Positions 1 to 17,910 of a stretch of DNA of 17,910 nt are shown one piece after another. The first letter of the stretch is position 1. Every line of letters starts with the position of its first letter. A program made the position numbers and the translations under genes. This DNA is from Promethearchaeota archaeon (GTDB lineage: Archaea; Asgardarchaeota; Thorarchaeia; Thorarchaeales; Thorarchaeaceae): contig WJMJ01000154.1 of NCBI GenBank assembly GCA_014728035.1, positions 1-17,910 on the forward strand, read 5' to 3'. Under the pieces are notes generated by a model that was not told where the DNA came from, ran no database searches, and was given only the letters and a program-made list of their open reading frames with translations.

Positions 1-756
1 AAAGTAATCCTAGATGATCAAGAATATCTCCTAGAAGTAGGAGATAGGATTTTCCTCGAACAGGATGAAATTCCAGAATTCGAGGATGAGGAGGATATAT
101 TCGGTGATCCAATAGAATACATCAAAGAGCATCCTGATGATCAGAGAGTACTTAATGTTATCAAGCAAAATCCAAAATGGGCTTATGAATATGCCGATGA
201 CGTAATCAAGGGCAGATGGCCTGAGGCTGAGGATACAATCAAGCAAAATCCAGAACAGGCTTATGATTATGCTCGTTATGTAGTCAAGGGTAGATGGCCC
301 GAGGCTGAGGATACAATCAAGCAAGATCCAAAATGGGCTTATATGTATGCTCATAATGTGATCAAGGGCAGATGGCCCGAGGTTGAGGACACCATTAAAC
401 AGGATCCAGAATGGGCTTATCGATATGCTCGTGATATGGTCAAGGGCAGATGGCCAGAGGGTGAGGATATAATCAAGCAAGATCCACAATTAGCTTATGA
501 ATATGCTCGTGATGTGATCAAGAGCAGATGGCCTGAGGCAGAGGAAATAATCAAACAGGATCCAGAATGGGCTTATCGATATGCTCGTGATATGATCAAG
601 GGCAGGTGGCCTGAGGCTGAGGATACAATCAAGCAATATCCAAAATGGTCTTATATGTATGCTCGTGACGTAATTAAGGGCAGGTGGCCTGAAGCAGAGG
701 AAACAATCAAGCAAGATCCAAAATGGTGGCAAGAATATGAGGAAGAATTCCTATGA
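1..756 (+). CDS. Tandem-repeat (26-aa helical repeat) hypothetical phage protein, 5'-truncated
   Basis: Frame 1 is open from base 1 to TGA at 754-756, so the track ORF 343..756 is only its distal part. An acidic N-terminal stretch is followed by repeats of IKQDPxWAYxYARDVIKGRWPEAEDT. Confidence 0.85.
   Translation, partial: KVILDDQEYLLEVGDRIFLEQDEIPEFEDEEDIFGDPIEYIKEHPDDQRVLNVIKQNPKWAYEYADDVIKGRWPEAEDTIKQNPEQAYDYARYVVKGRWPEAEDTIKQDPKWAYMYAHNVIKGRWPEVEDTIKQDPEWAYRYARDMVKGRWPEGEDIIKQDPQLAYEYARDVIKSRWPEAEEIIKQDPEWAYRYARDMIKGRWPEAEDTIKQYPKWSYMYARDVIKGRWPEAEETIKQDPKWWQEYEEEFL
160..735 (+). repeat. 78-bp coding tandem repeat, 7 full copies plus a partial copy
   Basis: Units (IKQ codons) begin at 160, 238, 316, 394, 472, 550, 628 and 706, an exact 78-nt period. 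Confidence 0.95.
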
Positions 757-1649: not shown

Positions 1650-3203
1650 ATGAAATTTCTAGGCAAAACAATTAGTGAAGATGCAGGCGGCACCAAGAAT
1701 GCACACCTCGTGCTTGAGGCCAAGAAAAATGCTCTAGTTAAGAAATGGTCTCCCGTTCTCAACAAGATGCCTGAGGTTGCTCCTCAGAAGTTTGGTCTCA
1801 TGGCATCTCTGATGGAGAACCAGCACAAGGTCATGAACAACAAAGGCTCCAGCGTCCTTTTTGAGGATACAGTTCAGACCGGCAATATTGCTGACTTCAC
1901 CAGATTCGCACTCCCGCTCATCCGCAAGAGCTTCCCCAAGCTGATCGCGGATAATCTTGTGGGTATTCAGCCCATGAGCCAGCCGGCCAGCCTCATTTTC
2001 TACATCCGCTATCGTTATGGTATTACCAAGGGTCAGACTGTTGCTGGCACCCAGATCATGCGTCAGAATACTTCGGCGCAGTTCGCACGCCAGAATGGTT
2101 GGGCACTTGACCCCTACTATAGCAGCCAGACTGTTGGTGGTCAGGGATTCGATGGTGAAGATGCAACGATCAACACCGCAGGTGATGCAGTCACCGCGAC
2201 CCTGCAGCATCATCCGGTTCTCGCTGGCTCTGTTGTGGTCAATGTCTACACCCAGGATCAGCTTGATGAAAGCTGTGAGCAGCCCACCCCATGTCTCCAG
2301 GTCACCTTCGATAGCGATGGTAGCCCTGATCTGGTCCTTGCTGGTACCGGTAGTGATTGCCCCACCGTCACTGTTGATACTGCAAGCTCCAGCTTCAACC
2401 ATGACACTGGTGTGGTGACCGTTTCCCTGAGTGCTGGCGACCTCAGTGGTCTTGTGGCACGGGTGAGTTACGAGTACGATCTTGAGAATAACCCGTTCCA
2501 GCCAGAGGTTACCATGAGCATTGACAGTGATAGCGTGAGTGCTGTCACCCGTAAGCTGAAGACCTCATGGAGTCTTGAAGCTGCTCAGGATCTCAAGTCG
2601 GTCCATAATATCGATGCAGAAGCCACTCTGACTGACCTGATGGCAGACGAGATGGTTGCTGAGATCGATCGTGAAATCCTCAACGATCTTCTGATCGCTG
2701 CAGCAATTCGTGCACGTCACAACTTTGCTACTGCAGCTGGTGCATCGGTTAACTTTACCGACCGTAACATCGCACTGCTCTACAAGACGCTTGAAGTCTC
2801 CAACATCATCCACCGAACCACACTCCGTGGTCCGGCAAACTGGGTGGTCACTTCGGCTGATATCGCTTCCAAGTACGAGCAGCTTAACGACTTCCGGGCC
2901 AGTGACGCTCTCGCGAATGATGGCGTCGACATTGGGATCACCAATGCTGGCACGATCCAGTCCAAGCTTAAGCTCTACAAGGATCCCCTCTTCCCGCAGT
3001 GTAAAGTTCTTCTCGGATTCAAGGGTGGGAACGTGATGGATACCGGTTACATGTATTGTCCTTATGTCCCCATGCTCAGCACTCCGACTGTGATGGACCC
3101 CAATTCATTTACACCGAATAAGGGACTCCTCACTCGTTATGGCAAAAAGCTCGTCGAGGATGGCGGCCTTTATTACGGTGCTATCACTGTGAGTAATTTG
3201 TAA
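1650..3203 (+). CDS. gp23: Major capsid protein, T4 gp23 family
   Basis: Motifs KKWSPVL, LPLIRKSFPKLIADNLVGIQPMSQPASLIFYIRYRY, TRKLKTSWSLEAAQDLKSVHNIDAE, EIDREI, YCPYVPM, DPNSFTPNKGLLTRYG. GGAGGT RBS upstream. Confidence 0.96.
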   Translation: MKFLGKTISEDAGGTKNAHLVLEAKKNALVKKWSPVLNKMPEVAPQKFGLMASLMENQHKVMNNKGSSVLFEDTVQTGNIADFTRFALPLIRKSFPKLIADNLVGIQPMSQPASLIFYIRYRYGITKGQTVAGTQIMRQNTSAQFARQNGWALDPYYSSQTVGGQGFDGEDATINTAGDAVTATLQHHPVLAGSVVVNVYTQDQLDESCEQPTPCLQVTFDSDGSPDLVLAGTGSDCPTVTVDTASSSFNHDTGVVTVSLSAGDLSGLVARVSYEYDLENNPFQPEVTMSIDSDSVSAVTRKLKTSWSLEAAQDLKSVHNIDAEATLTDLMADEMVAEIDREILNDLLIAAAIRARHNFATAAGASVNFTDRNIALLYKTLEVSNIIHRTTLRGPANWVVTSADIASKYEQLNDFRASDALANDGVDIGITNAGTIQSKLKLYKDPLFPQCKVLLGFKGGNVMDTGYMYCPYVPMLSTPTVMDPNSFTPNKGLLTRYGKKLVEDGGLYYGAITVSNL

Positions 3204-3261
3204 ATTGTTGCTAAATGCCTTTGAAGGCTAAGAAAAGGCATTCTGAAACCTAGAAACACAT

Positions 3262-3293
3262 AGAAAGGCCTCCTTACTGGAGGCCTTTCTTTT
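3262..3293 (+). terminator. Rho-independent terminator after gp23 (possibly bidirectional)
   Basis: Perfect 12-bp stem AGAAAGGCCTCC / GGAGGCCTTTCT, 5-nt loop TTACT, followed by T residues. Confidence 0.9.
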
Positions 3294-3299
3294 ATATCT

Positions 3300-3398
3300 A
3301 TATGAGAAAAAACTAATAAAGACAAAATAAACTTTCCACTAGCTTATTGTGGTCCTTTCCATTATATTCATATGAGAAAAAACTAATAAAGACAAAAT
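3300..3398. repeat. Intergenic direct repeat with 70-bp period
   Basis: ATATGAGAAAAAACTAATAAAGACAAAAT is identical at 3300-3328 and 3370-3398, with imperfect similarity extending on both sides. Confidence 0.9.
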
Positions 3399-3458
3399 GA
3401 AACTTTCTACAAGTTTCATGTATTTTAAGACATGTAAATTTAAGAATATGGAGAACGC

Positions 3459-5630
3459 ATGGATATTAAAAAAAGAAATGAGATTCTCGCAAATGATTAT
3501 TTAAGTGGGAAAACATTGCAGTATATATCAGATTCATCTGGATTGTCGAAATCTCAATTGAGTAGAATATTTAGAGAATTAGGTGTTAAACGGAAAAAAT
3601 ATGAGTTAGATAAAGATTATTTTGATAGTAATAAAAATAAGACAGCAAGGCAAATAAGTGAAGAGACTGGTATTTCTATTAAAAGAGTTATGCATTTAAA
3701 AAGAATAGCAAGCGGAGCTAAAATATCAAAGGGTAAGACTGATTTTACAGATTGTGATCCAACAGTTGACCCAGGATTAATCAATAATCATGACTGGTTA
3801 TATGAACAATATGTTACGAACAAACTTGGGGCACCAAGCATAGCTAAAATGTTGGGATCTAAATGTTCCACAATATATAAGATGTTTAAGAGATTTGGTA
3901 TTAGTCGTAGAAATATTAGTCAAGCCATGGAAGTTAAAAAGAAGTGGCCAAGTAAGGATTGGCTGGAGGACCATTATAATAATAGTAAATGGTCAGTAGA
4001 GAGATGCTCTGTAGAATTTGGCACAAACTGGGAAGCTATATATGAAGCTTTAAAACATTATAATATCCCACTTAGAGATGCTAGCACACAACATAGAGGC
4101 AATTTGAACGAATTTTATGGCATGAATCACAATGAAGAGACTAAAATCAAATGCGCCAAAATAGGATCCAAATATGGCGCTGAATATTGGACTACCGGCG
4201 ATGTTGAAGAGAAGAAAAGGCTGACATCTGAAATTAGTAAAAAAGTTTGGTCTGATCCACTTAAAAGACATGATCATTCTGTAAGAATAACCGAGTTGTG
4301 TAAACAAGGCAAATGCAATGCCAAGAACATAACATATATTTCATATAATGGTGATATTATTAAAATGAAATCATCATGGGAATTATTGACAGCACAGATT
4401 TTGGATAAATCTGATGTGGTTGTGGATTGGAAATATGAAGATTTATCTATTAAGTACCATGATGGCGATCATATTCGGAACTTTATAGTTGATTTCTGGG
4501 TGAAGTGGAAGGATGGTCTAGAGTCATATATTGAATGTAAAAACCAGCATTTATTAATCAAAGAAGGAGAACAATTAAAAATAAAGACATTACAAGAATA
4601 TTGCGATAGACACGGGTTTGATTTTATTTTAATTGATAGCAAAGAACAAATAAAGAAAATGTCTATGGGCTATAAAGACATGGTACAATGGATTAATAGT
4701 TCCAGATATAAAGTTAAGCGTAAATATCTACAAGAGCCAGTATTATTTGTGAGAATGATGTTTCACGATATAATAAATCACATCTGTCCTTGGAAACCTC
4801 TACAGTATGAAGATGATGAATTGGCCAAAGACATCGATAGATTGAAGAATGAAAACCTTGATGGATATAATCAGAATGATGGTTTGCATTCCACTGCTCC
4901 AAACAGTGGTGGTATGCCTGGCAGAATCATAATGACTCATTTTAATCCACATTTTTGGGATGTGCCACCCAAAAATTCTAGACCACTTCCACATGCTTTT
5001 GATGACAAAAAACTGATTCTTAAATGCCTTAATATATCATATAAGGAAAAGGAATCACTCAGTGTTGAAAGATTGCTTAGAGAGATAAACTTTCATAGCA
5101 AATTTGGTAGGACGTCCCATTTTGCACCAGGATTTGCCCGTAATATTATAAAATTAATGGATGCATCTGGAAAGAGGATATTTGATCCATGTTGCGGATG
5201 GGGAGGTAGATTACTTGGCTCTTGGTTGGAGGAATGCGAATATTCTGGGTGTGACATTAGTCCTTTAACCTTTAATGGACTATTGAATATATCTAATTTT
5301 GTGGGGCATGATTGTGATATATTCAATGAATCATGTCTTGATCATGATTGGCCAGATTCTGATTTGATATTCACATCACCACCGTTTTATGACATAGAAC
5401 AATATATTGGTGGTAATCAGCCATGGATGAGATGTAAATCTAGAAACGAATGGATAGAGACATTTGTTGAGCCGTTCGTAAACAAAATAAATTCGAATTG
5501 CGTACTATATTTAGACCATAAGACTAAGGATGATTATGAATCAATTAGGAAATTCAACAAGATAATAGAAATTAAAAATAGGAGACACGCAAGGAGAAAG
5601 GTTGATAGTGAATTGTTATGTATATATTGA
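3459..5630 (+). CDS. Multi-domain protein: HTH repeats, PD-(D/E)xK (TnsA-like/homing) endonuclease and amino-DNA methyltransferase
   Basis: N-terminal HTH-like repeats (WLYEQYVTNKLGAPSIAKMLG; WLEDHYNNSKWSVERCSVEFG) and a NUMOD3-like FYGMNHNEETKIK. Nuclease-like MKSSWE...WKYE...FIVDFWV...YIECKN. MTase motif I FDPCCGWGGRLLG and motif IV FTSPPFY. Confidence 0.8.
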   Translation: MDIKKRNEILANDYLSGKTLQYISDSSGLSKSQLSRIFRELGVKRKKYELDKDYFDSNKNKTARQISEETGISIKRVMHLKRIASGAKISKGKTDFTDCDPTVDPGLINNHDWLYEQYVTNKLGAPSIAKMLGSKCSTIYKMFKRFGISRRNISQAMEVKKKWPSKDWLEDHYNNSKWSVERCSVEFGTNWEAIYEALKHYNIPLRDASTQHRGNLNEFYGMNHNEETKIKCAKIGSKYGAEYWTTGDVEEKKRLTSEISKKVWSDPLKRHDHSVRITELCKQGKCNAKNITYISYNGDIIKMKSSWELLTAQILDKSDVVVDWKYEDLSIKYHDGDHIRNFIVDFWVKWKDGLESYIECKNQHLLIKEGEQLKIKTLQEYCDRHGFDFILIDSKEQIKKMSMGYKDMVQWINSSRYKVKRKYLQEPVLFVRMMFHDIINHICPWKPLQYEDDELAKDIDRLKNENLDGYNQNDGLHSTAPNSGGMPGRIIMTHFNPHFWDVPPKNSRPLPHAFDDKKLILKCLNISYKEKESLSVERLLREINFHSKFGRTSHFAPGFARNIIKLMDASGKRIFDPCCGWGGRLLGSWLEECEYSGCDISPLTFNGLLNISNFVGHDCDIFNESCLDHDWPDSDLIFTSPPFYDIEQYIGGNQPWMRCKSRNEWIETFVEPFVNKINSNCVLYLDHKTKDDYESIRKFNKIIEIKNRRHARRKVDSELLCIY

Positions 5631-5697: not shown

Positions 5698-6177
5698 ATG
5701 GACATCATACAAAAAGCGCGGATGAGAGCAAAGAAGGCACATCATGGGCAGACGCGCAAAGGGTCTGCCGCACCCTATTTTACCCATCCAGAAGCTGTAG
5801 CACAGCTTGTACAAGAATCAGGTGGTAGTGATTATCTTATTGCTGCAGCTTATCTTCATGACGTACTAGAAGACACCAACACACCTATACATGATTTCCC
5901 AGATGAAGTGCGGAATGTTGTTGAGAAATTGACCCACAAGGGCGGGTATGCACATGCCAAGATAGACGCCATCAAGAAACTTGAAGGCGATAAAGACGCT
6001 ATTTTGGTAAAACTCGCTGATCGGTTGCATAATCTGAGTGATTCTTCTTTCAAACGAGATAGATATGCTAGCAGAAAATCCGTCCAGCAATCTACAAATA
6101 TTCTGTTAGCCATGGCCGTTGATGCTGGACTGGCTCATACTAAGGTGTTTCGTGATTTAGACAAACTGATGAGGTGA
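5698..6177 (+). CDS. Small HD-domain hydrolase, RelA/SpoT (p)ppGpp hydrolase / Mesh1-like
   Basis: AHHGQTRKGSAAPYFTHPEAVA, AAYLHDVLEDT, VKLADRLHNL. Confidence 0.9.
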   Translation: MDIIQKARMRAKKAHHGQTRKGSAAPYFTHPEAVAQLVQESGGSDYLIAAAYLHDVLEDTNTPIHDFPDEVRNVVEKLTHKGGYAHAKIDAIKKLEGDKDAILVKLADRLHNLSDSSFKRDRYASRKSVQQSTNILLAMAVDAGLAHTKVFRDLDKLMR

Positions 6178-6863: not shown

Positions 6864-6884
6864 CTATACCTAGATGATATATAA
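6864..6884 (+). promoter_or_regulatory. Putative promoter for scaffold/array 1
   Basis: CTATACCTAGATGATATATAA, 18/21 identical to 7161-7181, runs into TATAAT directly before the scaffold. Confidence 0.55.
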
Positions 6885-6948
6885 TTCAGGCCCTCATCCT
6901 CGGGCCTAAGCTCACCCATGATGGTGAGTAATCTCCGGATGGAGACCA
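6885..6948 (+). ncRNA. Structured scaffold (tracrRNA/scoutRNA-like), copy 1
   Basis: 62/64 identical to 9647-9710. Hairpins AGGCCC-[TCATCCTC]-GGGCCT, CTCACC-[CATGAT]-GGTGAG and TCTCC-[GGAT]-GGAGA. Loop 1 is complementary to the repeat 3' end. Confidence 0.75.
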
Positions 6949-6955
6949 CTTTAGT

Positions 6956-7099
6956 ATCGTCTTTGTGCGCGTGTGGAAGGATGATGATGACCGTGGATCG
7001 GTTCCCCCTTCCCGCAATCGTCTTCGTGCGCGTGTGGGAGGATGGCCCCAGCACGTACATAGCACAGGAAGCACTCCAATCGTCTTCGTGGGAGGATGG
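6956..7099 (+). CRISPR. CRISPR mini-array 1 (3 repeats, 2 bounded spacers plus a probable trailing spacer)
   Basis: Repeats at 6956-6984 (ATCGTCTTTGTGCGCGTGTGGAAGGATGA), 7017-7045 (ATCGTCTTCGTGCGCGTGTGGGAGGATGG) and 7079-7099 (8-nt internal deletion). Spacers are 32 and 33 nt. Confidence 0.8.
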
Positions 7100-7160
7100 G
7101 CTGGACCCGACTGCGCGGCCTTCGGCCCCAGTATAGACATACTATCTTTCCTAACGTAAC

Positions 7161-7181: not shown

Positions 7182-7210
7182 ATCACTTCTCTCACTTTAG
7201 GAGGATCACT

Positions 7211-8602
7211 ATGGCTAAGAAGACAAAAAAGAAGGTTGTTAAGAAAAAGACGGATGACAAAAAAGAGGACAAGCCAAAACGGATTGGTAAAACCCTATCA
7301 TTGAGGGTTGATGTTGATGTTCCATTTTATTGTGAGGCAAATGGCATAGAGGTGCCAGTTGGGAAAACTGAGTATAACGAAATACGCAATGAACTCAGGA
7401 CGATAATTCGGAATGATATCAAGCGGTATAGGTTCGTACTCAGACAAGCTGCCAGTATTCTAGCATTTGCAGCCACAGTGACACAGCACATAGAATTTAA
7501 AGATGATGATATTAGGGTATATGCAACCTCTGAAGAAATGAAAGAAACTCTGCGCACACTATTTGGAAGGGATGGTGCCGCGTGTTTCTATTCGCTTAGA
7601 GAATGGGTGATTGAAAGATTGGGTGGATGGCGTACTGAACATTGGGATCATATGCGCAACGAATTGCAAACCAATTGGTTTGCTAAAGATCCCCAGTTTG
7701 GTGCTAGTCGTGGGTGGCTCATTCTGAATTGTGCACGTATTCCTGCATTGTTCCACAATGCACCGATTAACTTTCTACCTTGTAGCGTGAAAGTTGATGA
7801 TGGCGGTCACCATATTAGTCTTAGCGTACGTCCAAGGGAGCGTTTTGGATTGCGTATTGCATCGACTGATAAGTCTCAATGGTTTTTGTGGAATAGAATT
7901 CTGAATAATGATGGATATCGGATGGGAACGTGCAAACTTTGTATTAACCGTAAACATCAATGGAAGTTTCTGGTTACCTATACTTGTGAGGAAACCAAAT
8001 CTGTTCTGAATCCTAAGCGCACTCTTGAGGTGGCCTTTACTGATGATCCCAAGAAATTCATCCAGTTTGCTATGAGATCTGGCCATAAGACTCTTATTGA
8101 TGACTTGAGAAATAAGCACTTGGATGCCACTGCTGCCATTAGAATCCTGGACAAGTTCAAAGCACAACAGCGTTACCTTGAAGAGGAGCGTGATGCATGT
8201 CGATATGGCAGAGGTGGTTATAATAAAGCATACAAAGCGGTTAACAAACGGAGGGCTAAGTATACAGAGGGAAGAGAAAGAGTATGTGCCAATTGGAATC
8301 ATACCTGGAGTAAGAGAATTATTACTATTGCACAGCAATGGGATTGTGGTAACATTGAAGTATTCAATATGCCGTCTCACAGTGTAAAAAAGAAGAATCT
8401 CGAAAAGCACGGTGCAGCAGCGGCAATTGAAGAATGTGCAATGCAAGAAGAGATTCGATCCAATTTGTTTGGTAGGGAATGGGCTTGGTTTGATTTTGCT
8501 CAGAAGGTGAAATATAAAGCCAGGGATGCAGGATGCAAGGTCAAATTCATCGAGAATGTAGACATAGACCATATTCTAGACATAGGTGCATCTGTATCGT
8601 GA
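7211..8602 (+). CDS. Cas12f/TnpB-like protein, predicted nuclease-dead and C-terminally truncated
   Basis: The C-terminal half follows the Cas12f/TnpB RuvC layout: KWKFLVTYT...KRTLEVAFTDD (RuvC-I position), NWNHTWSKRIITIAQQWDCGNIEVFNM (RuvC-II position), WAWFDFAQKVKYKARDAGCKVKFIE. It stops before the Zn finger and RuvC-III. Flanked by CRISPR arrays. Confidence 0.75.
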   Translation: MAKKTKKKVVKKKTDDKKEDKPKRIGKTLSLRVDVDVPFYCEANGIEVPVGKTEYNEIRNELRTIIRNDIKRYRFVLRQAASILAFAATVTQHIEFKDDDIRVYATSEEMKETLRTLFGRDGAACFYSLREWVIERLGGWRTEHWDHMRNELQTNWFAKDPQFGASRGWLILNCARIPALFHNAPINFLPCSVKVDDGGHHISLSVRPRERFGLRIASTDKSQWFLWNRILNNDGYRMGTCKLCINRKHQWKFLVTYTCEETKSVLNPKRTLEVAFTDDPKKFIQFAMRSGHKTLIDDLRNKHLDATAAIRILDKFKAQQRYLEEERDACRYGRGGYNKAYKAVNKRRAKYTEGRERVCANWNHTWSKRIITIAQQWDCGNIEVFNMPSHSVKKKNLEKHGAAAAIEECAMQEEIRSNLFGREWAWFDFAQKVKYKARDAGCKVKFIENVDIDHILDIGASVS

Positions 8603-8604
8603 TG

Positions 8605-8723
8605 GCGATGTGATGTGAAGCAATACGAGATGTGGTAGAGCGATGGTTCTGTAAGACATAACGTATCGTTGCGTAAATCAACGAATGCAAAGCACATCGG
8701 GTGGTCGTGGGTGGTCCACGGCC
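8605..8723 (+). ncRNA. Putative guide-type ncRNA with 5-nt periodic RYR-NN units and a 3' hairpin
   Basis: Eight consecutive RYR-NN pentamers at 8605-8644. The phase shifts by +1 at 8646 and again at 8687 (41-nt blocks). Hairpin GGTCGTGG-[GTGGT]-CCACGGCC at 8703-8723. Confidence 0.55.
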
Positions 8724-8748
8724 CATTGTGGAAACTGGAGGAAAAACC

Positions 8749-9438
8749 GTGAAGACAATCAGAGTGAAAGCGACGTTTTTGGAGCCTGTGTTGGGCACTG
8801 TGGCTGGAGATCCAGAGATTTATGAACAGTTTATTGCCAGTAAACGGCCTGATGGTGTGGATCCAGAAGAGATTGAGGCAATCCCAACGTTGGAGGAGGA
8901 TTTGGAAAAGGGAGCGACAGTGTTCGCTCGTATAAATGAAACTGGTACACCCATGCTCTGGGATTATCAGATTCGTGGATTCTTCAAAGAGGCATTTAAA
9001 TCCATGATCGATATTACTGGATCTTGTATCGACACAAAGGAGAAGCAGAAGAAATACAGGCTCACCAATTATACGTGCAAAAAGACGGTGGATAATCATA
9101 TTGGTGTCACGCCACGACGAGTTGAACTGCATCTGCCGGAGGGTGGTGAACTTACATTTTGTCAGCGACCGCTTCGGGCTGAAACGATGAGAGGAGAACG
9201 AATCGCTCTCGCTTATAGTGAAGAAGCACCGGCTGGAAGCTGGGTTGAATTTACGATCACATTGATGGACGATAAGCTCGAAGAACCAGTGCTTCAGGCA
9301 TTGATGTATGGGGCACACAAAGGATTCGGACAATGGCGCAATAGCGGTAAGGGGCGATTTGAAGTTGAAATTCTGGATGAAGAAAAAACATCCCCCGATT
9401 GGCTCAACACAAGCAAGATTAAGCGTAAGACAGATTAG
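8749..9438 (+). CDS. Stand-alone RAMP / Cas7-fold RNA-binding protein (229 aa)
   Basis: Likely start is GTG 8749, with GGAGG at 8737-8741. RAMP-like elements: IRVKATFLEPVLG, PMLWDYQIRGFFKEA, thumb QRPLRAETMRGERIALAYSEEAPAGSWVEFTITL, Gly-rich loop YGAHKGFGQWRNSGKGRFEV. Confidence 0.75.
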   Translation: MKTIRVKATFLEPVLGTVAGDPEIYEQFIASKRPDGVDPEEIEAIPTLEEDLEKGATVFARINETGTPMLWDYQIRGFFKEAFKSMIDITGSCIDTKEKQKKYRLTNYTCKKTVDNHIGVTPRRVELHLPEGGELTFCQRPLRAETMRGERIALAYSEEAPAGSWVEFTITLMDDKLEEPVLQALMYGAHKGFGQWRNSGKGRFEVEILDEEKTSPDWLNTSKIKRKTD

Positions 9439-9454
9439 TCCGGAAAGGGCATAG

Positions 9455-9640
9455 ATGCGTTGTGTCAATGAAAATTGTGATCGTGATTCTGATTGTCTGG
9501 GTGCAGTGCTGGTCAACGCGGATGGTGACTTTGCCTGCTGCAAAACTTGTGCGGAAGAATATCGTAAGCAACGAGATCATTTCTTTGCCGTAACAGTGCA
9601 TGATGAAGAACTCACAGCCGCATATTTGCGAGGCGAATAA
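9455..9640 (+). CDS. Small Cys-rich, putative Zn-binding protein (61 aa)
   Basis: CxxxxC...DGDFACCKTC. Fills the gap between the RAMP gene and scaffold copy 2 on the same strand. Confidence 0.65.
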   Translation: MRCVNENCDRDSDCLGAVLVNADGDFACCKTCAEEYRKQRDHFFAVTVHDEELTAAYLRGE

Positions 9641-9646
9641 CGTATT

Positions 9647-9710
9647 TTCAGGCCCTCATCCTCGGGCCTAAGCTCACCCACGACGGTGAGTAATCTCCGG
9701 ATGGAGACCA
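9647..9710 (+). ncRNA. Structured scaffold (tracrRNA/scoutRNA-like), copy 2
   Basis: 62/64 identical to 6885-6948. Both differences (9681, 9684) fall in the loop of hairpin 2. Confidence 0.75.
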
Positions 9711-9725
9711 TACAACGGGTGTAAT

Positions 9726-9991
9726 GTGACGCCCACGTGCGCATGGGAGGATGGGGTGCCACACGGATCCGCACGATTTTGCCGTGCGTGACGCCCACGT
9801 GCGCATGGGAGGATGGTGAAAAGATGCGAGCGGCTGAACATATACGAGCGTGACGCCCACGTGCGCATGGGAGGATGGGAGGATCTCGAAATCCTCGAAA
9901 CTATGTGACGCCCACGTGCGCATGGGAGGATGGCTGTAAAAGGACCAAGAAGGAAATCAGCGCAAGTGACACCCCATGTATGGGAGGATGG
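9726..9991 (+). CRISPR. CRISPR mini-array 2 (5 repeats, 4 bounded spacers plus a probable trailing spacer)
   Basis: GTGACGCCCACGTGCGCATGGGAGGATGG is identical at 9726, 9788, 9850 and 9905, with a degenerate 26-nt copy at 9966-9991. Spacers are 33, 33, 26 and 32 nt. Confidence 0.95.
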
Positions 9992-10075
9992 GTATCGGGA
10001 CCCTTCAGGTGCAGAGATATGAGCTTGATTGTTTCAATATATAATTCTACATCTTTGGTGTAAAAGGAGAATATT

Positions 10076-10768
10076 ATGGTCAACACGGCTGAAAAAATCG
10101 ATAAGGTTGAAGCAGAACCAATTGGTGAAATGTCTGATGACGAATTCCAGCAAGTTCTTATTGAGCTTGATGCGATCATTGAAGATATTGTTGACAAGAT
10201 GCTCAGTATGGCAACATATCTAGGACGCATGAGCAAACCACAGATTAAGGAGGTATGTCAACGATACAAAGGAACTATATCTGCGGATCACATCAAACGA
10301 ATCGCATTATTCGGTCGCGGAATGATCAAGGAATATATGGCTAGACCGGAGAAATACATTTATGCCACAGAACTGCAACGATATAGTGATAAAGCTAGAC
10401 AAGATGTGGCAGATCCGGAACGCGTAGTTGAAGTATTGACCATACATGGGCGCAAATCTGAGGTATCAAATAAGAAATTGTGCGAATTGACCCCAGTGCA
10501 GATGATTAATGTGGTGGACCCAATTTATGGTATTCGCACAGTGAAACAACAGGAGAAAGTATTTGTTAGTAATATAAAGAAAGCCTGTAAGAGACAAAAA
10601 AGAACTCCGTCAGACGAAGAAATCAAGTCATTTCTTTATGCATCTGCAGAGCCATCAGAGGATGGTAAATTTATTGTAATTCGAGGGCATGAGGGCGATT
10701 GTGTGCCTGTCATGAAAATTGAAATACCGGCATCTACGATTAAAGATATATTGAGCAGTATTACATAA
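10076..10768 (+). CDS. Hypothetical protein
   Basis: 230-aa ORF with AAGGAG RBS. No family recognised. Confidence 0.75.
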   Translation: MVNTAEKIDKVEAEPIGEMSDDEFQQVLIELDAIIEDIVDKMLSMATYLGRMSKPQIKEVCQRYKGTISADHIKRIALFGRGMIKEYMARPEKYIYATELQRYSDKARQDVADPERVVEVLTIHGRKSEVSNKKLCELTPVQMINVVDPIYGIRTVKQQEKVFVSNIKKACKRQKRTPSDEEIKSFLYASAEPSEDGKFIVIRGHEGDCVPVMKIEIPASTIKDILSSIT

Positions 10769-16939: not shown

Positions 16940-17910
16940 ATGGATAAATTCACAACCCGTGTTCCTTATAATGGATTTGATTGGTTTCGCCCAGAATCAT
17001 TATATGACAAGCTTTTAGTTCATCATAATATATATCCAGTAATAGAAGAAGGTGTTGGTGGTTTTTATTTGCGTCTATCTGCACTACCTTATGTAGCTCT
17101 AAATGTAATTATAGAATCGGATAGTGTATCCCTATCACCCACAACGCTTGTTTTTGATCACGATGATTGGGATATCAATCAATGGGTTGATGCGACTGGG
17201 TTTGGTGAAATAACCATTAGCGATGAATATAATATTCTCGTAGAAACTGTATTTGTTTTTGGGACATCAAGTTCATCATCATCAAGCCAATCAAGTAGTT
17301 CAAGTAGTCTAAGTAGTTCATCATCGTCATCGTCATCGTCATCGAGTCAGTCTAGTTCAAGTAGTTCATCATCATCAAGTAGCCAATCAAGTAGTAGTTC
17401 CAGTAGTCTAAGTAGTTCATCATCATCAAGTAGTCAATCAAGTAGTAGTTCAAGTAGTAGTTCAAGTAGTTTAAGCTCATCGTCATCGAGTCAATCAAGT
17501 AGTAGTTCAAGTAGCTTAAGCTCATCGTCATCGAGCCAATCAAGTAGCTTAAGCTCATCGTCGTCGAGCAAATCATCTAGTAGCTCTAGCTCGTCCTATT
17601 CATCATCGTCATCCAGATCTTCTAGCTCCAGTTACTCATCTAGTAGTTCTAGCTCTTCTAGCTCCAGTTATTCATCTAGTAGTTCTAGCTCGTCCTACTC
17701 GTCATCGTCATCTAGCTCTTCATCCTCCTCTTACTCATCGAGTAGTTCTAGCTCGTCTTACTCAAGCTCCTCATCTAGCTCGTCTAGTTCCAGTTACTCA
17801 TCGAGTAGTTCTAGCTCATCCTACTCAAGCTCCTCGTCTAGCTCGTCTAGCTCCAGTTACTCATCGAGTAGTTCTAGCTCGTCATACTCAAGCTCATCAT
17901 CTAGATCGTC
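16940..17910 (+). CDS. Poly-serine surface/virion-type protein, 3'-truncated (absent from the ORF track)
   Basis: ATG 16940, open to the window end: MDKFTTRVPYNGFDW...FYLRLSALPYVALNVIIESDSVSLSPTTLVFDHDDWDINQWVDATG..., followed by more than 200 codons that are almost all Ser. Confidence 0.85.
   Translation, partial: MDKFTTRVPYNGFDWFRPESLYDKLLVHHNIYPVIEEGVGGFYLRLSALPYVALNVIIESDSVSLSPTTLVFDHDDWDINQWVDATGFGEITISDEYNILVETVFVFGTSSSSSSSQSSSSSSLSSSSSSSSSSSSQSSSSSSSSSSSQSSSSSSSLSSSSSSSSQSSSSSSSSSSSLSSSSSSQSSSSSSSLSSSSSSQSSSLSSSSSSKSSSSSSSSYSSSSSRSSSSSYSSSSSSSSSSSYSSSSSSSSYSSSSSSSSSSSYSSSSSSSSYSSSSSSSSSSSYSSSSSSSSYSSSSSSSSSSSYSSSSSSSSYSSSSSRS
17267..17910 (+). repeat. Low-complexity poly-Ser coding tract
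   Basis: Mixed TCN/AGY codons in one frame, punctuated by Gln/Leu up to about 17570 and by Tyr afterwards. Confidence 0.95.

Follow-up and report, generated by a model that had tools for sequence, protein, structure and literature searches.

Natural dCas12f proteins with C-terminal truncations are already known to bind DNA under RNA guidance (PMC13472631), and a dCas12f cluster associated with CRISPR arrays has been briefly mentioned (Hoffmann, Wiegand et al., Nature 2026, PMC13472631). TldRs are RNA-guided repressors (Wiegand et al. 2024, 10.1101/2023.11.30.569447; PMC13622181). The protein studied here, P0001, is encoded in a window of 17,910 nt (the whole stretch of DNA that was analysed), and its locus represents a virus-borne form with a distinct partner. 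The dCas12f proteins of Bacteroidota (Flagellimonas taeanensis, 9n9c/9n9m) resemble P0001 in having a Cas12f-like fold, in the loss of part of RuvC through C-terminal truncation, and in a scaffold followed by a 3' guide, and some of them lie beside CRISPR arrays. Unlike them, P0001 is carried by a virus and not by a Bacteroidota chromosome, and its locus contains a different conserved partner and several scaffold-led mini-arrays. In contrast to the dCas12f-sigma-E system, no rpoE/sigma-E or HTH gene is a neighbour of P0001, and no sigma match above threshold was obtained for the neighbouring ORFs. The P0001 family is set beside the array-associated dCas12f cluster by description only (PMC13472631).

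The best sequence and structure matches of P0001 were active type V-F Cas12f nucleases of similar size (OsCas12f, 9nzq; AsCas12f, 8j12/7wju/8dzj; SpCas12f1, 9i8y), which also share with this locus the combination of a CRISPR array and a tracr-like anti-repeat RNA. Unlike these enzymes, P0001 has both of its retained catalytic positions substituted and lacks the TNB zinc finger and RuvC-III, and the anti-repeat at its locus is a hairpin loop of 5-8 nt, as against the long duplex of active Cas12f. TldRs are, like P0001, often phage-encoded, RuvC-inactivated and C-terminally truncated (10.1101/2023.11.30.569447; PMC13622181), but they descend from IS200/IS605 TnpB and use a single omega-RNA-type guide, encoded at the 3' end of the gene, against fixed targets (fliC, oppA), whereas the P0001 locus has multi-spacer arrays with a separate scaffold and P0001 groups with Cas12f, ISDra2 TnpB not being in its profile match list. 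Cas12m (type V-M) and Cas12k (type V-K CAST) bind without double-strand cleavage, which is also how we read P0001; however, Cas12m retains RuvC for crRNA processing while P0001 has no RuvC catalytic residues, and Cas12k acts together with TnsB/TnsC/TniQ, whereas the scanned window ORFs included none of these. In the literature searched we did not find a virus-borne family with this partner, and the branch has received a passing mention at most.

The features of the window to which the text refers are the following:

1650-3203: gp23-type capsid gene, whose best match is a 595-kb uncultured phage
6878-6885, + strand: TATATAAT box directly 5' of scaffold copy 1 (exact match), a probable promoter of the guide transcript
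6885-6948, + strand: scaffold RNA copy 1, three hairpins (97% identity to 9647-9710; folding; covariation)
6956-7132, + strand: mini-array 1, repeats at 6956-6984, 7017-7045 and 7079-7099 (the last one shortened), guides of about 32 nt
7199-7204, + strand: Shine-Dalgarno sequence AGGAGG of the dCas12f-like gene (direct reading)
7211-8602, + strand: P0001, Cas12f-like effector of 463 aa, C-terminally truncated and nuclease-dead by prediction (homology, alignment, AF2 model)
8701-9438, + strand: P0002, stand-alone viral RAMP, Csm3/Cas7-like (weak Csm4/Cas6/Cas7 G-rich-loop matches; structure)
9455-9640, + strand: Cys-rich ORF of 61 aa, zinc-ribbon-like, just before scaffold copy 2 (sub-threshold TRASH-domain match only)
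9647-9710, + strand: scaffold RNA copy 2 (identity to copy 1, folding)
9726-10024, + strand: mini-array 2, five 29-nt repeats at 9726, 9788, 9850, 9905 and 9966 (degenerate), guides of 26-33 nt
10076-10768, + strand: P0155, conserved partner of 230 aa (homologues downstream of the dCas12f gene in relatives)

The P0001 effector and the age of its catalytic loss

The original prediction had described an intact ORF with a strong ribosome-binding site and a Lys-rich N-terminal tail, and all of these elements were present: the ORF starts with ATG, the AGGAGG motif sits 6 bases 5' of it, and 12 of residues 1-23 are Lys. P0001 matched the PADLOC profiles Cas12u3 (3.6e-19) and Cas12f (9.1e-19) and the NCBIfam family guided_TnpB (2.4e-6), and its top relative of solved structure in a PDB sequence search was OsCas12f 9nzq, with E-values of 1.5e-6 for P0001 alone and 2.6e-24 for the family profile. 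An AF2 model, built with 50 homologues as input (mean pLDDT 86.6), was then submitted to Foldseek. The structural comparison proposed with the original prediction placed AsCas12f (8j12, E 1.9e-18) ahead of Un1Cas12f1 (2e-12) and ISDra2 TnpB (about 1e-9); natural dCas12f 9n9c was matched at 6e-16, and the matches to Cas12k and Cas12m were weaker (1e-7 to 1e-8). By sequence and model alike, P0001 is a genuine Cas12f homologue, a chance resemblance being excluded, and the model showed retention of the Cas12f WED/REC/RuvC-core fold.

The replacement of the RuvC-I and RuvC-II motifs by LEVAFT and IEVFNM, from which nuclease inactivity had been proposed, was borne out by the HMMER alignment to OsCas12f. 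At RuvC-I the GVDMG of OsCas12f faces EVAFT in P0001, so that the catalytic Asp is replaced by Ala275, and at RuvC-II IQMEDL faces IEVFNM, the catalytic Glu being replaced by Phe385. The short C-terminus that had been described was also found: the protein ends 15 residues past KVKFIE, and its tail has no CxxC pair, zinc finger or RuvC-III. The complete RuvC D-E-D triad is thus absent from P0001 (A275 at position I, F385 at position II, and the segment with position III gone). Only 98 nt separate the P0001 stop codon from the next ORF, which leaves no space for a frameshifted zinc finger or RuvC-III. From its sequence, P0001 is nuclease-dead.

An exhaustive HMMER search against 1.84 billion cluster representatives returned 189 matches, 132 of them at E <= 1e-10, with identities of 25-37% to P0001. 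Column statistics were calculated from an alignment of the best 150 of the 189 matches. Asp occupied the RuvC-I column in only 2 of these 150 representatives and Glu the RuvC-II column in 7, and the tail past the conserved Gly441 had a median length of 18.5 aa. One distant match, P0141, alone looks active, with GIDLG, the Glu and a CxxC-bearing tail. Conversely, several non-catalytic residues were at least 90% conserved (R74, D160, R176, WNH362-364, P388, W424, F429, K436 and G441), and this strong conservation argues for a maintained function. The alignment indicates that the P0001 clade is old, maintained and nuclease-dead, and that the loss is neither that of a pseudogene nor specific to this virus. 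In this respect the original prediction, which had regarded the protein as independently inactivated, does not hold for the P0001 gene, the loss being common to a clade of at least 150 representatives; a recent pseudogene, on the other hand, is contradicted by close and distant homologues that are equally short (P0141 apart).

Over comparable regions, the family profile scored 89 bits with OsCas12f, 77 with AsCas12f and 55 with the F. taeanensis dCas12f (E 4.7e-14 for the latter). That the two active enzymes outscore the dCas12f agrees with the family having arisen separately from the sigma-E-linked clade, and an inactivation independent of that published clade is plausible from these profile scores.

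The distribution of the family was also surveyed in other collections. No true family member was present in 400 genomes of the phylum to which the bin containing the window belongs. A pattern scan of the GTDB species genomes for related loci gave no match, the equivalent search of IMG/VR found nothing, and that of the JGI metagenomes gave one short contig. A tblastn search of 50,697 GenBank phages with P0001 had no match. Word-index homologue searches with P0001 and P0155 returned only the query itself, and the same kind of search with the partner alignment recovered two already known partners only.

Scaffold RNAs and dispersed mini-arrays

The P0001 gene is flanked by two arrays, both in the correct orientation for type V guides, and each of them is headed by a 64-nt scaffold element with a three-hairpin fold. 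The two scaffolds are 97% identical and lead mini-arrays of 3 and 5 repeats, so that a CRISPR array with an adjacent tracr-like anti-repeat RNA is present twice at this locus. The scaffold region matched no Rfam family. Its hairpin-1 loop (UCAUCCUC) is complementary to the final 7-8 nt of the window repeat, which ends in GAGGAUGG.

Thirteen related loci were recovered, and arrays or scaffold-repeat units adjoin the homologues in eight of them (L002, L003, L004, L017, L020, L022, L024 and L028). The layout of three hairpins, a linker and a repeat whose 3' end matches the loop recurs at loci of quite different sequence, and the loop pairing, which spans the last 5-8 nt of the repeat, covaries across them. 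The hairpin-1 loops and the corresponding repeat 3' ends were as follows:

L020: loop CUCUAG, repeat end CUAGAG
L002: loop CUCUCA, repeat end UGAGAG
L024: loop CCCGA, repeat end UCGGG
L003: loop CUUCC, repeat end GGAAG
L022: loop CUGUAGCC, repeat end GGCUACAG
L017, unit a: loop CUGUGC, repeat end GCACAG
L017, unit b: loop CUGUGG, repeat end CCACAG

The two units of L017 represent a compensatory swap of loop and repeat end within one locus. When the longest Watson-Crick runs of ten scaffold-repeat pairs were added, the sum was 59, compared with 32.3 ± 2.8 (maximum 45 among 5000) for composition-preserving loop shuffles (n=5000). We infer that the scaffold is a tracrRNA-like module joined to the start of each array; the first unit would use it in cis, and the later units in trans.

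Four additional scaffold-led mini-arrays, sharing the 64-nt scaffold and the 29-nt repeat, were located by the scaffold/repeat motif on other contigs of the bin, three of them on the 121-kb contig C70:

C70 about 19354, + strand: scaffold-led mini-array
C70 about 19911, + strand: scaffold-led mini-array
C70 about 57653, + strand: mini-array 3' of an intein-bearing NrdD
C74 about 9390-9657, - strand: mini-array C74a

The sequence GATATATAAT directly precedes 4 of the 6 scaffolds of the bin (window array 1, at 6876-6885, C70a and C70b on contig C70, and C74a on C74), which suggests that this box is a promoter. The bin holds one dCas12f gene and one partner gene, and no second copy of either was found in it. 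Six scaffold-led arrays and a single dCas12f gene mean that one effector appears to serve at least 6 arrays and about 20 guides. The related loci L020 and L028 have 5 and 4 scaffolds, respectively, and 6-12 repeats dispersed around genes; in L028 (8430-10741) and L020 (4348-7512), repeat-guide units are interspersed among the dCas12f, the partner and small genes. Given this layout, dispersed multi-scaffold guide sets are a trait of the family. The part of the original prediction that saw an array-programmed binder is consistent with the two flanking arrays and their type V orientation; the scaffold RNA and the partner gene had been missed.

A separate observation concerns the Shine-Dalgarno region of the dCas12f gene, where AGGAGGAT (window 7199-7206) repeats the GGAGGAT of the CRISPR repeat 3' end. 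Since this region shares the repeat-end motif, it is also complementary to the loop of scaffold hairpin 1, which may reflect autoregulation or be a coincidence.

The carrier virus, its other genes and the search for targets

The phage-borne nature of the locus, as originally proposed, agrees with the gp23-type capsid gene in the same window. The loci of the relatives consist mostly of small genes without a Pfam family; lambda-type terminase, portal and capsid genes lie on one related contig, and others bear integrase and HU, cI-type HTH genes, or Thy1, so that the clade sits in phage-like contigs wherever the context is readable. On one related phage contig (L019), a separate TnpB-like gene (PF07282) and an HD_4 gene were noted at 2772-3869 and 4207-4734, the latter gene being alike in family to window 5698-6177.

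Several other parts of the window were inspected. P0002, which lies directly downstream of the effector gene, falls with the viral RAMP clusters of the Atlas (TM 0.59-0.65 to Csm3) and belongs to a RAMP-superfamily group common in phages. Its candidacy as a conserved crRNA-processing subunit was rejected, because it is missing elsewhere (no RAMP at 12 related loci) and its homologues (43-45%) sit elsewhere in gut phages, with no dCas12f, partner or array within 12 kb in 2 of 4 records. P0002 is probably a passenger or an insertion specific to this lineage, and does not count among the conserved components of the system. The gene at 3459-5630 encodes a 723-aa protein that carries several HTHs towards its N-terminus, DNA-methyltransferase-like motifs at its C-terminus and, besides these, a TnsA-like endonuclease N domain (PF08722, 7.8e-7). 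The TnsA-like domain had raised a CAST reading, which was dropped as TnsB/C/TniQ are missing from the scanned ORFs. At the edges of the window (1-756 and 16940-17908) we observed a protein made of 78-nt (26-aa) tandem repeats, with copies of 76-88% on contigs C118, C74 and C158. Positions 1-134 are identical to the end of contig C27 and constitute an assembly junction, and a very long repeat protein rich in Ser, encoded at the 3' end, has a match on C74 too.

The 20 guides were searched against the 4.3-Mb bin, including 155 kb of putatively viral contigs, and no protospacer was found; neither was one found in the GenBank phages. Exact 22-mers of two guides were absent from IMG/VR and those of one guide from GTDB, and the guides of the related loci had no self-matches. 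Guide 4 of array 2 had a 17-nt match on contig C134, which was discarded because it is central and A/G-rich and all 5 of 5 repeat-proximal bases are mismatched. With regard to the host, the GC content of the contig (40.7%) is compatible with that of the bin (39.5 ± 1.4%), the contamination of which is 8.5%. An archaeal assignment calls for caution, given the uncultured phage that best matches the capsid and the fact that the guides miss the archaeal chromosome.

The partner protein and the function of the system

A second TATATAAT box, at 10038-10045, lies upstream of the gene for P0155. Genes for a partner of 200-230 aa were found directly downstream in 6 of the 7 loci for which over 1 kb of sequence follows the dCas12f gene. 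A quick tree with weak support, in which P0001 branches deeply, spreads the partner-linked members over at least 5 subclades. With P0155 as the tblastn query, the matches were L004 (9e-33), L017/18 (3e-22), L023 (1e-16) and L020/21 (1e-16); the L028 gene matched the partner HMM at 6e-48, and a 210-aa gene occupies the partner position in another related contig. No partner was found within 7 kb in L027. P0155 had no Pfam or PHROG family, and no sigma, HTH or enzyme signature was detected with either. Its AF2 model (pLDDT 76) gave no Foldseek match in the PDB at E <= 0.001, a Z-score below 5 in the VIA-wide fold comparison, where only a long helix was matched, and a TM-score of at most 0.48 in the Atlas; the best viral fold match, in BFVD, was an uncharacterised protein of Sinorhizobium phage phiM12 (1.9e-4). 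An Spt5-NGN identity was rejected, the weak match (E 0.029) obtained with one partner not being reproduced in the other four. The comparison of loci suggests that P0155 is conserved together with the dCas12f-like protein and the scaffold-array as a three-part module.

We consider that P0001 probably derives from type V-F Cas12f and forms the protein part of an RNA-guided DNA-binding system carried by a virus; DNA, and not RNA, was assumed as the predicted target from the sequence relationships. A transcript led by TATATAAT would provide a natural single-guide RNA composed of scaffold, repeat 1 and guide 1, and the scaffold would act in trans as the tracrRNA-like partner of the later repeats. 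P0001, probably dimeric like Cas12f, would load these guides and, by extension from the Cas12f, dCas12f and TldR literature, form TAM-dependent R-loops on complementary DNA without cutting it. Occupancy could then block transcription, or the partner protein could bring an activity of its own. The targets would be found outside the bin, rival mobile elements or the true host being the likeliest places. The missing protospacers of the 20 guides and the lack of a nearby partner in L027 weigh on this reading, and the presence of a partner gene and a scaffold RNA makes a simple stand-alone repressor less certain.

The partner is also the basis of the alternative that survives best, according to which the dead Cas12f is not a repressor but a recruiter that brings the partner to DNA, where the latter performs the real activity, e.g. 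transcription activation or takeover, or some other DNA transaction. The recurrent position of the partner gene across subclades, its own TATATAAT box and the precedent of dCas12f-sigma-E (PMC13472631) all speak for such a role, but neither Pfam nor PHROGs marks the partner as a sigma factor, HTH protein or enzyme, and L027 does without it nearby, and we judge recruitment as the main function unlikely. Of the two outcomes of binding, occupancy-type silencing of external targets seems to us slightly more likely than recruitment through the partner.

It could also be argued that the system is still a nuclease, with the partner or the Cys-rich ORF at 9455-9640 providing RuvC-III and the zinc finger in trans, and with D278 and D279, acidic residues that follow the RuvC-I strand, rebuilding the active site. 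Columns 278/279 are indeed mostly Asp/Glu across the family, and a zinc-ribbon-like ORF does exist in the locus. Nevertheless, almost every member has non-acidic residues at the canonical Asp and Glu columns, neither CxxC pairs nor a RuvC-III-like motif occur in the partner, and the Cys-rich ORF has neither a counterpart in the related loci nor a paralogue in the bin, all of which renders retained cleavage very improbable. Least credible of all is a decaying relic of a once-active phage CRISPR-Cas12f system with no present function, an idea prompted by the degenerate final repeats of both arrays and by the lack of Pfam or PADLOC matches to a cas1/cas2/cas4 adaptation module among the scanned ORFs of the 17.9-kb window, but opposed by the intact ORF with its strong ribosome-binding site, by the recurrence of this architecture in 150 or more diverged representatives (25-37% identity), whose non-catalytic residues are conserved, by the compensatory changes that preserve scaffold pairing, and by the six near-identical scaffolds kept in one virus.

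For the preferred reading of a virus-borne RNA-guided binder, the significance lies in the combination of an ancient dead effector, compact self-scaffolded arrays spread across a large viral genome, and a conserved partner without a recognised fold. Natural dCas12f proteins have only recently been shown to be RNA-guided transcription factors in bacteria, and the P0001 branch is much larger and virus-borne. The covarying pseudoknot between loop and repeat constitutes a directly testable rule for guide construction. A more speculative, and somewhat doubtful, proposal is that the partner is a new effector or adaptor delivered by the dead Cas12f ('guide plus cargo'), with the loop pseudoknot replacing the tracrRNA duplex and one scaffold serving dispersed arrays; if true, it could be used, for example, in host takeover or in silencing rival elements. 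Should the partner be the functional output, the system would represent a new mode of viral RNA-guided control and a very small programmable DNA-binding platform, and if the Thorarchaeota (Asgard) genome that shares the bin is the host, an Asgard virus would then possess an RNA-guided regulator.
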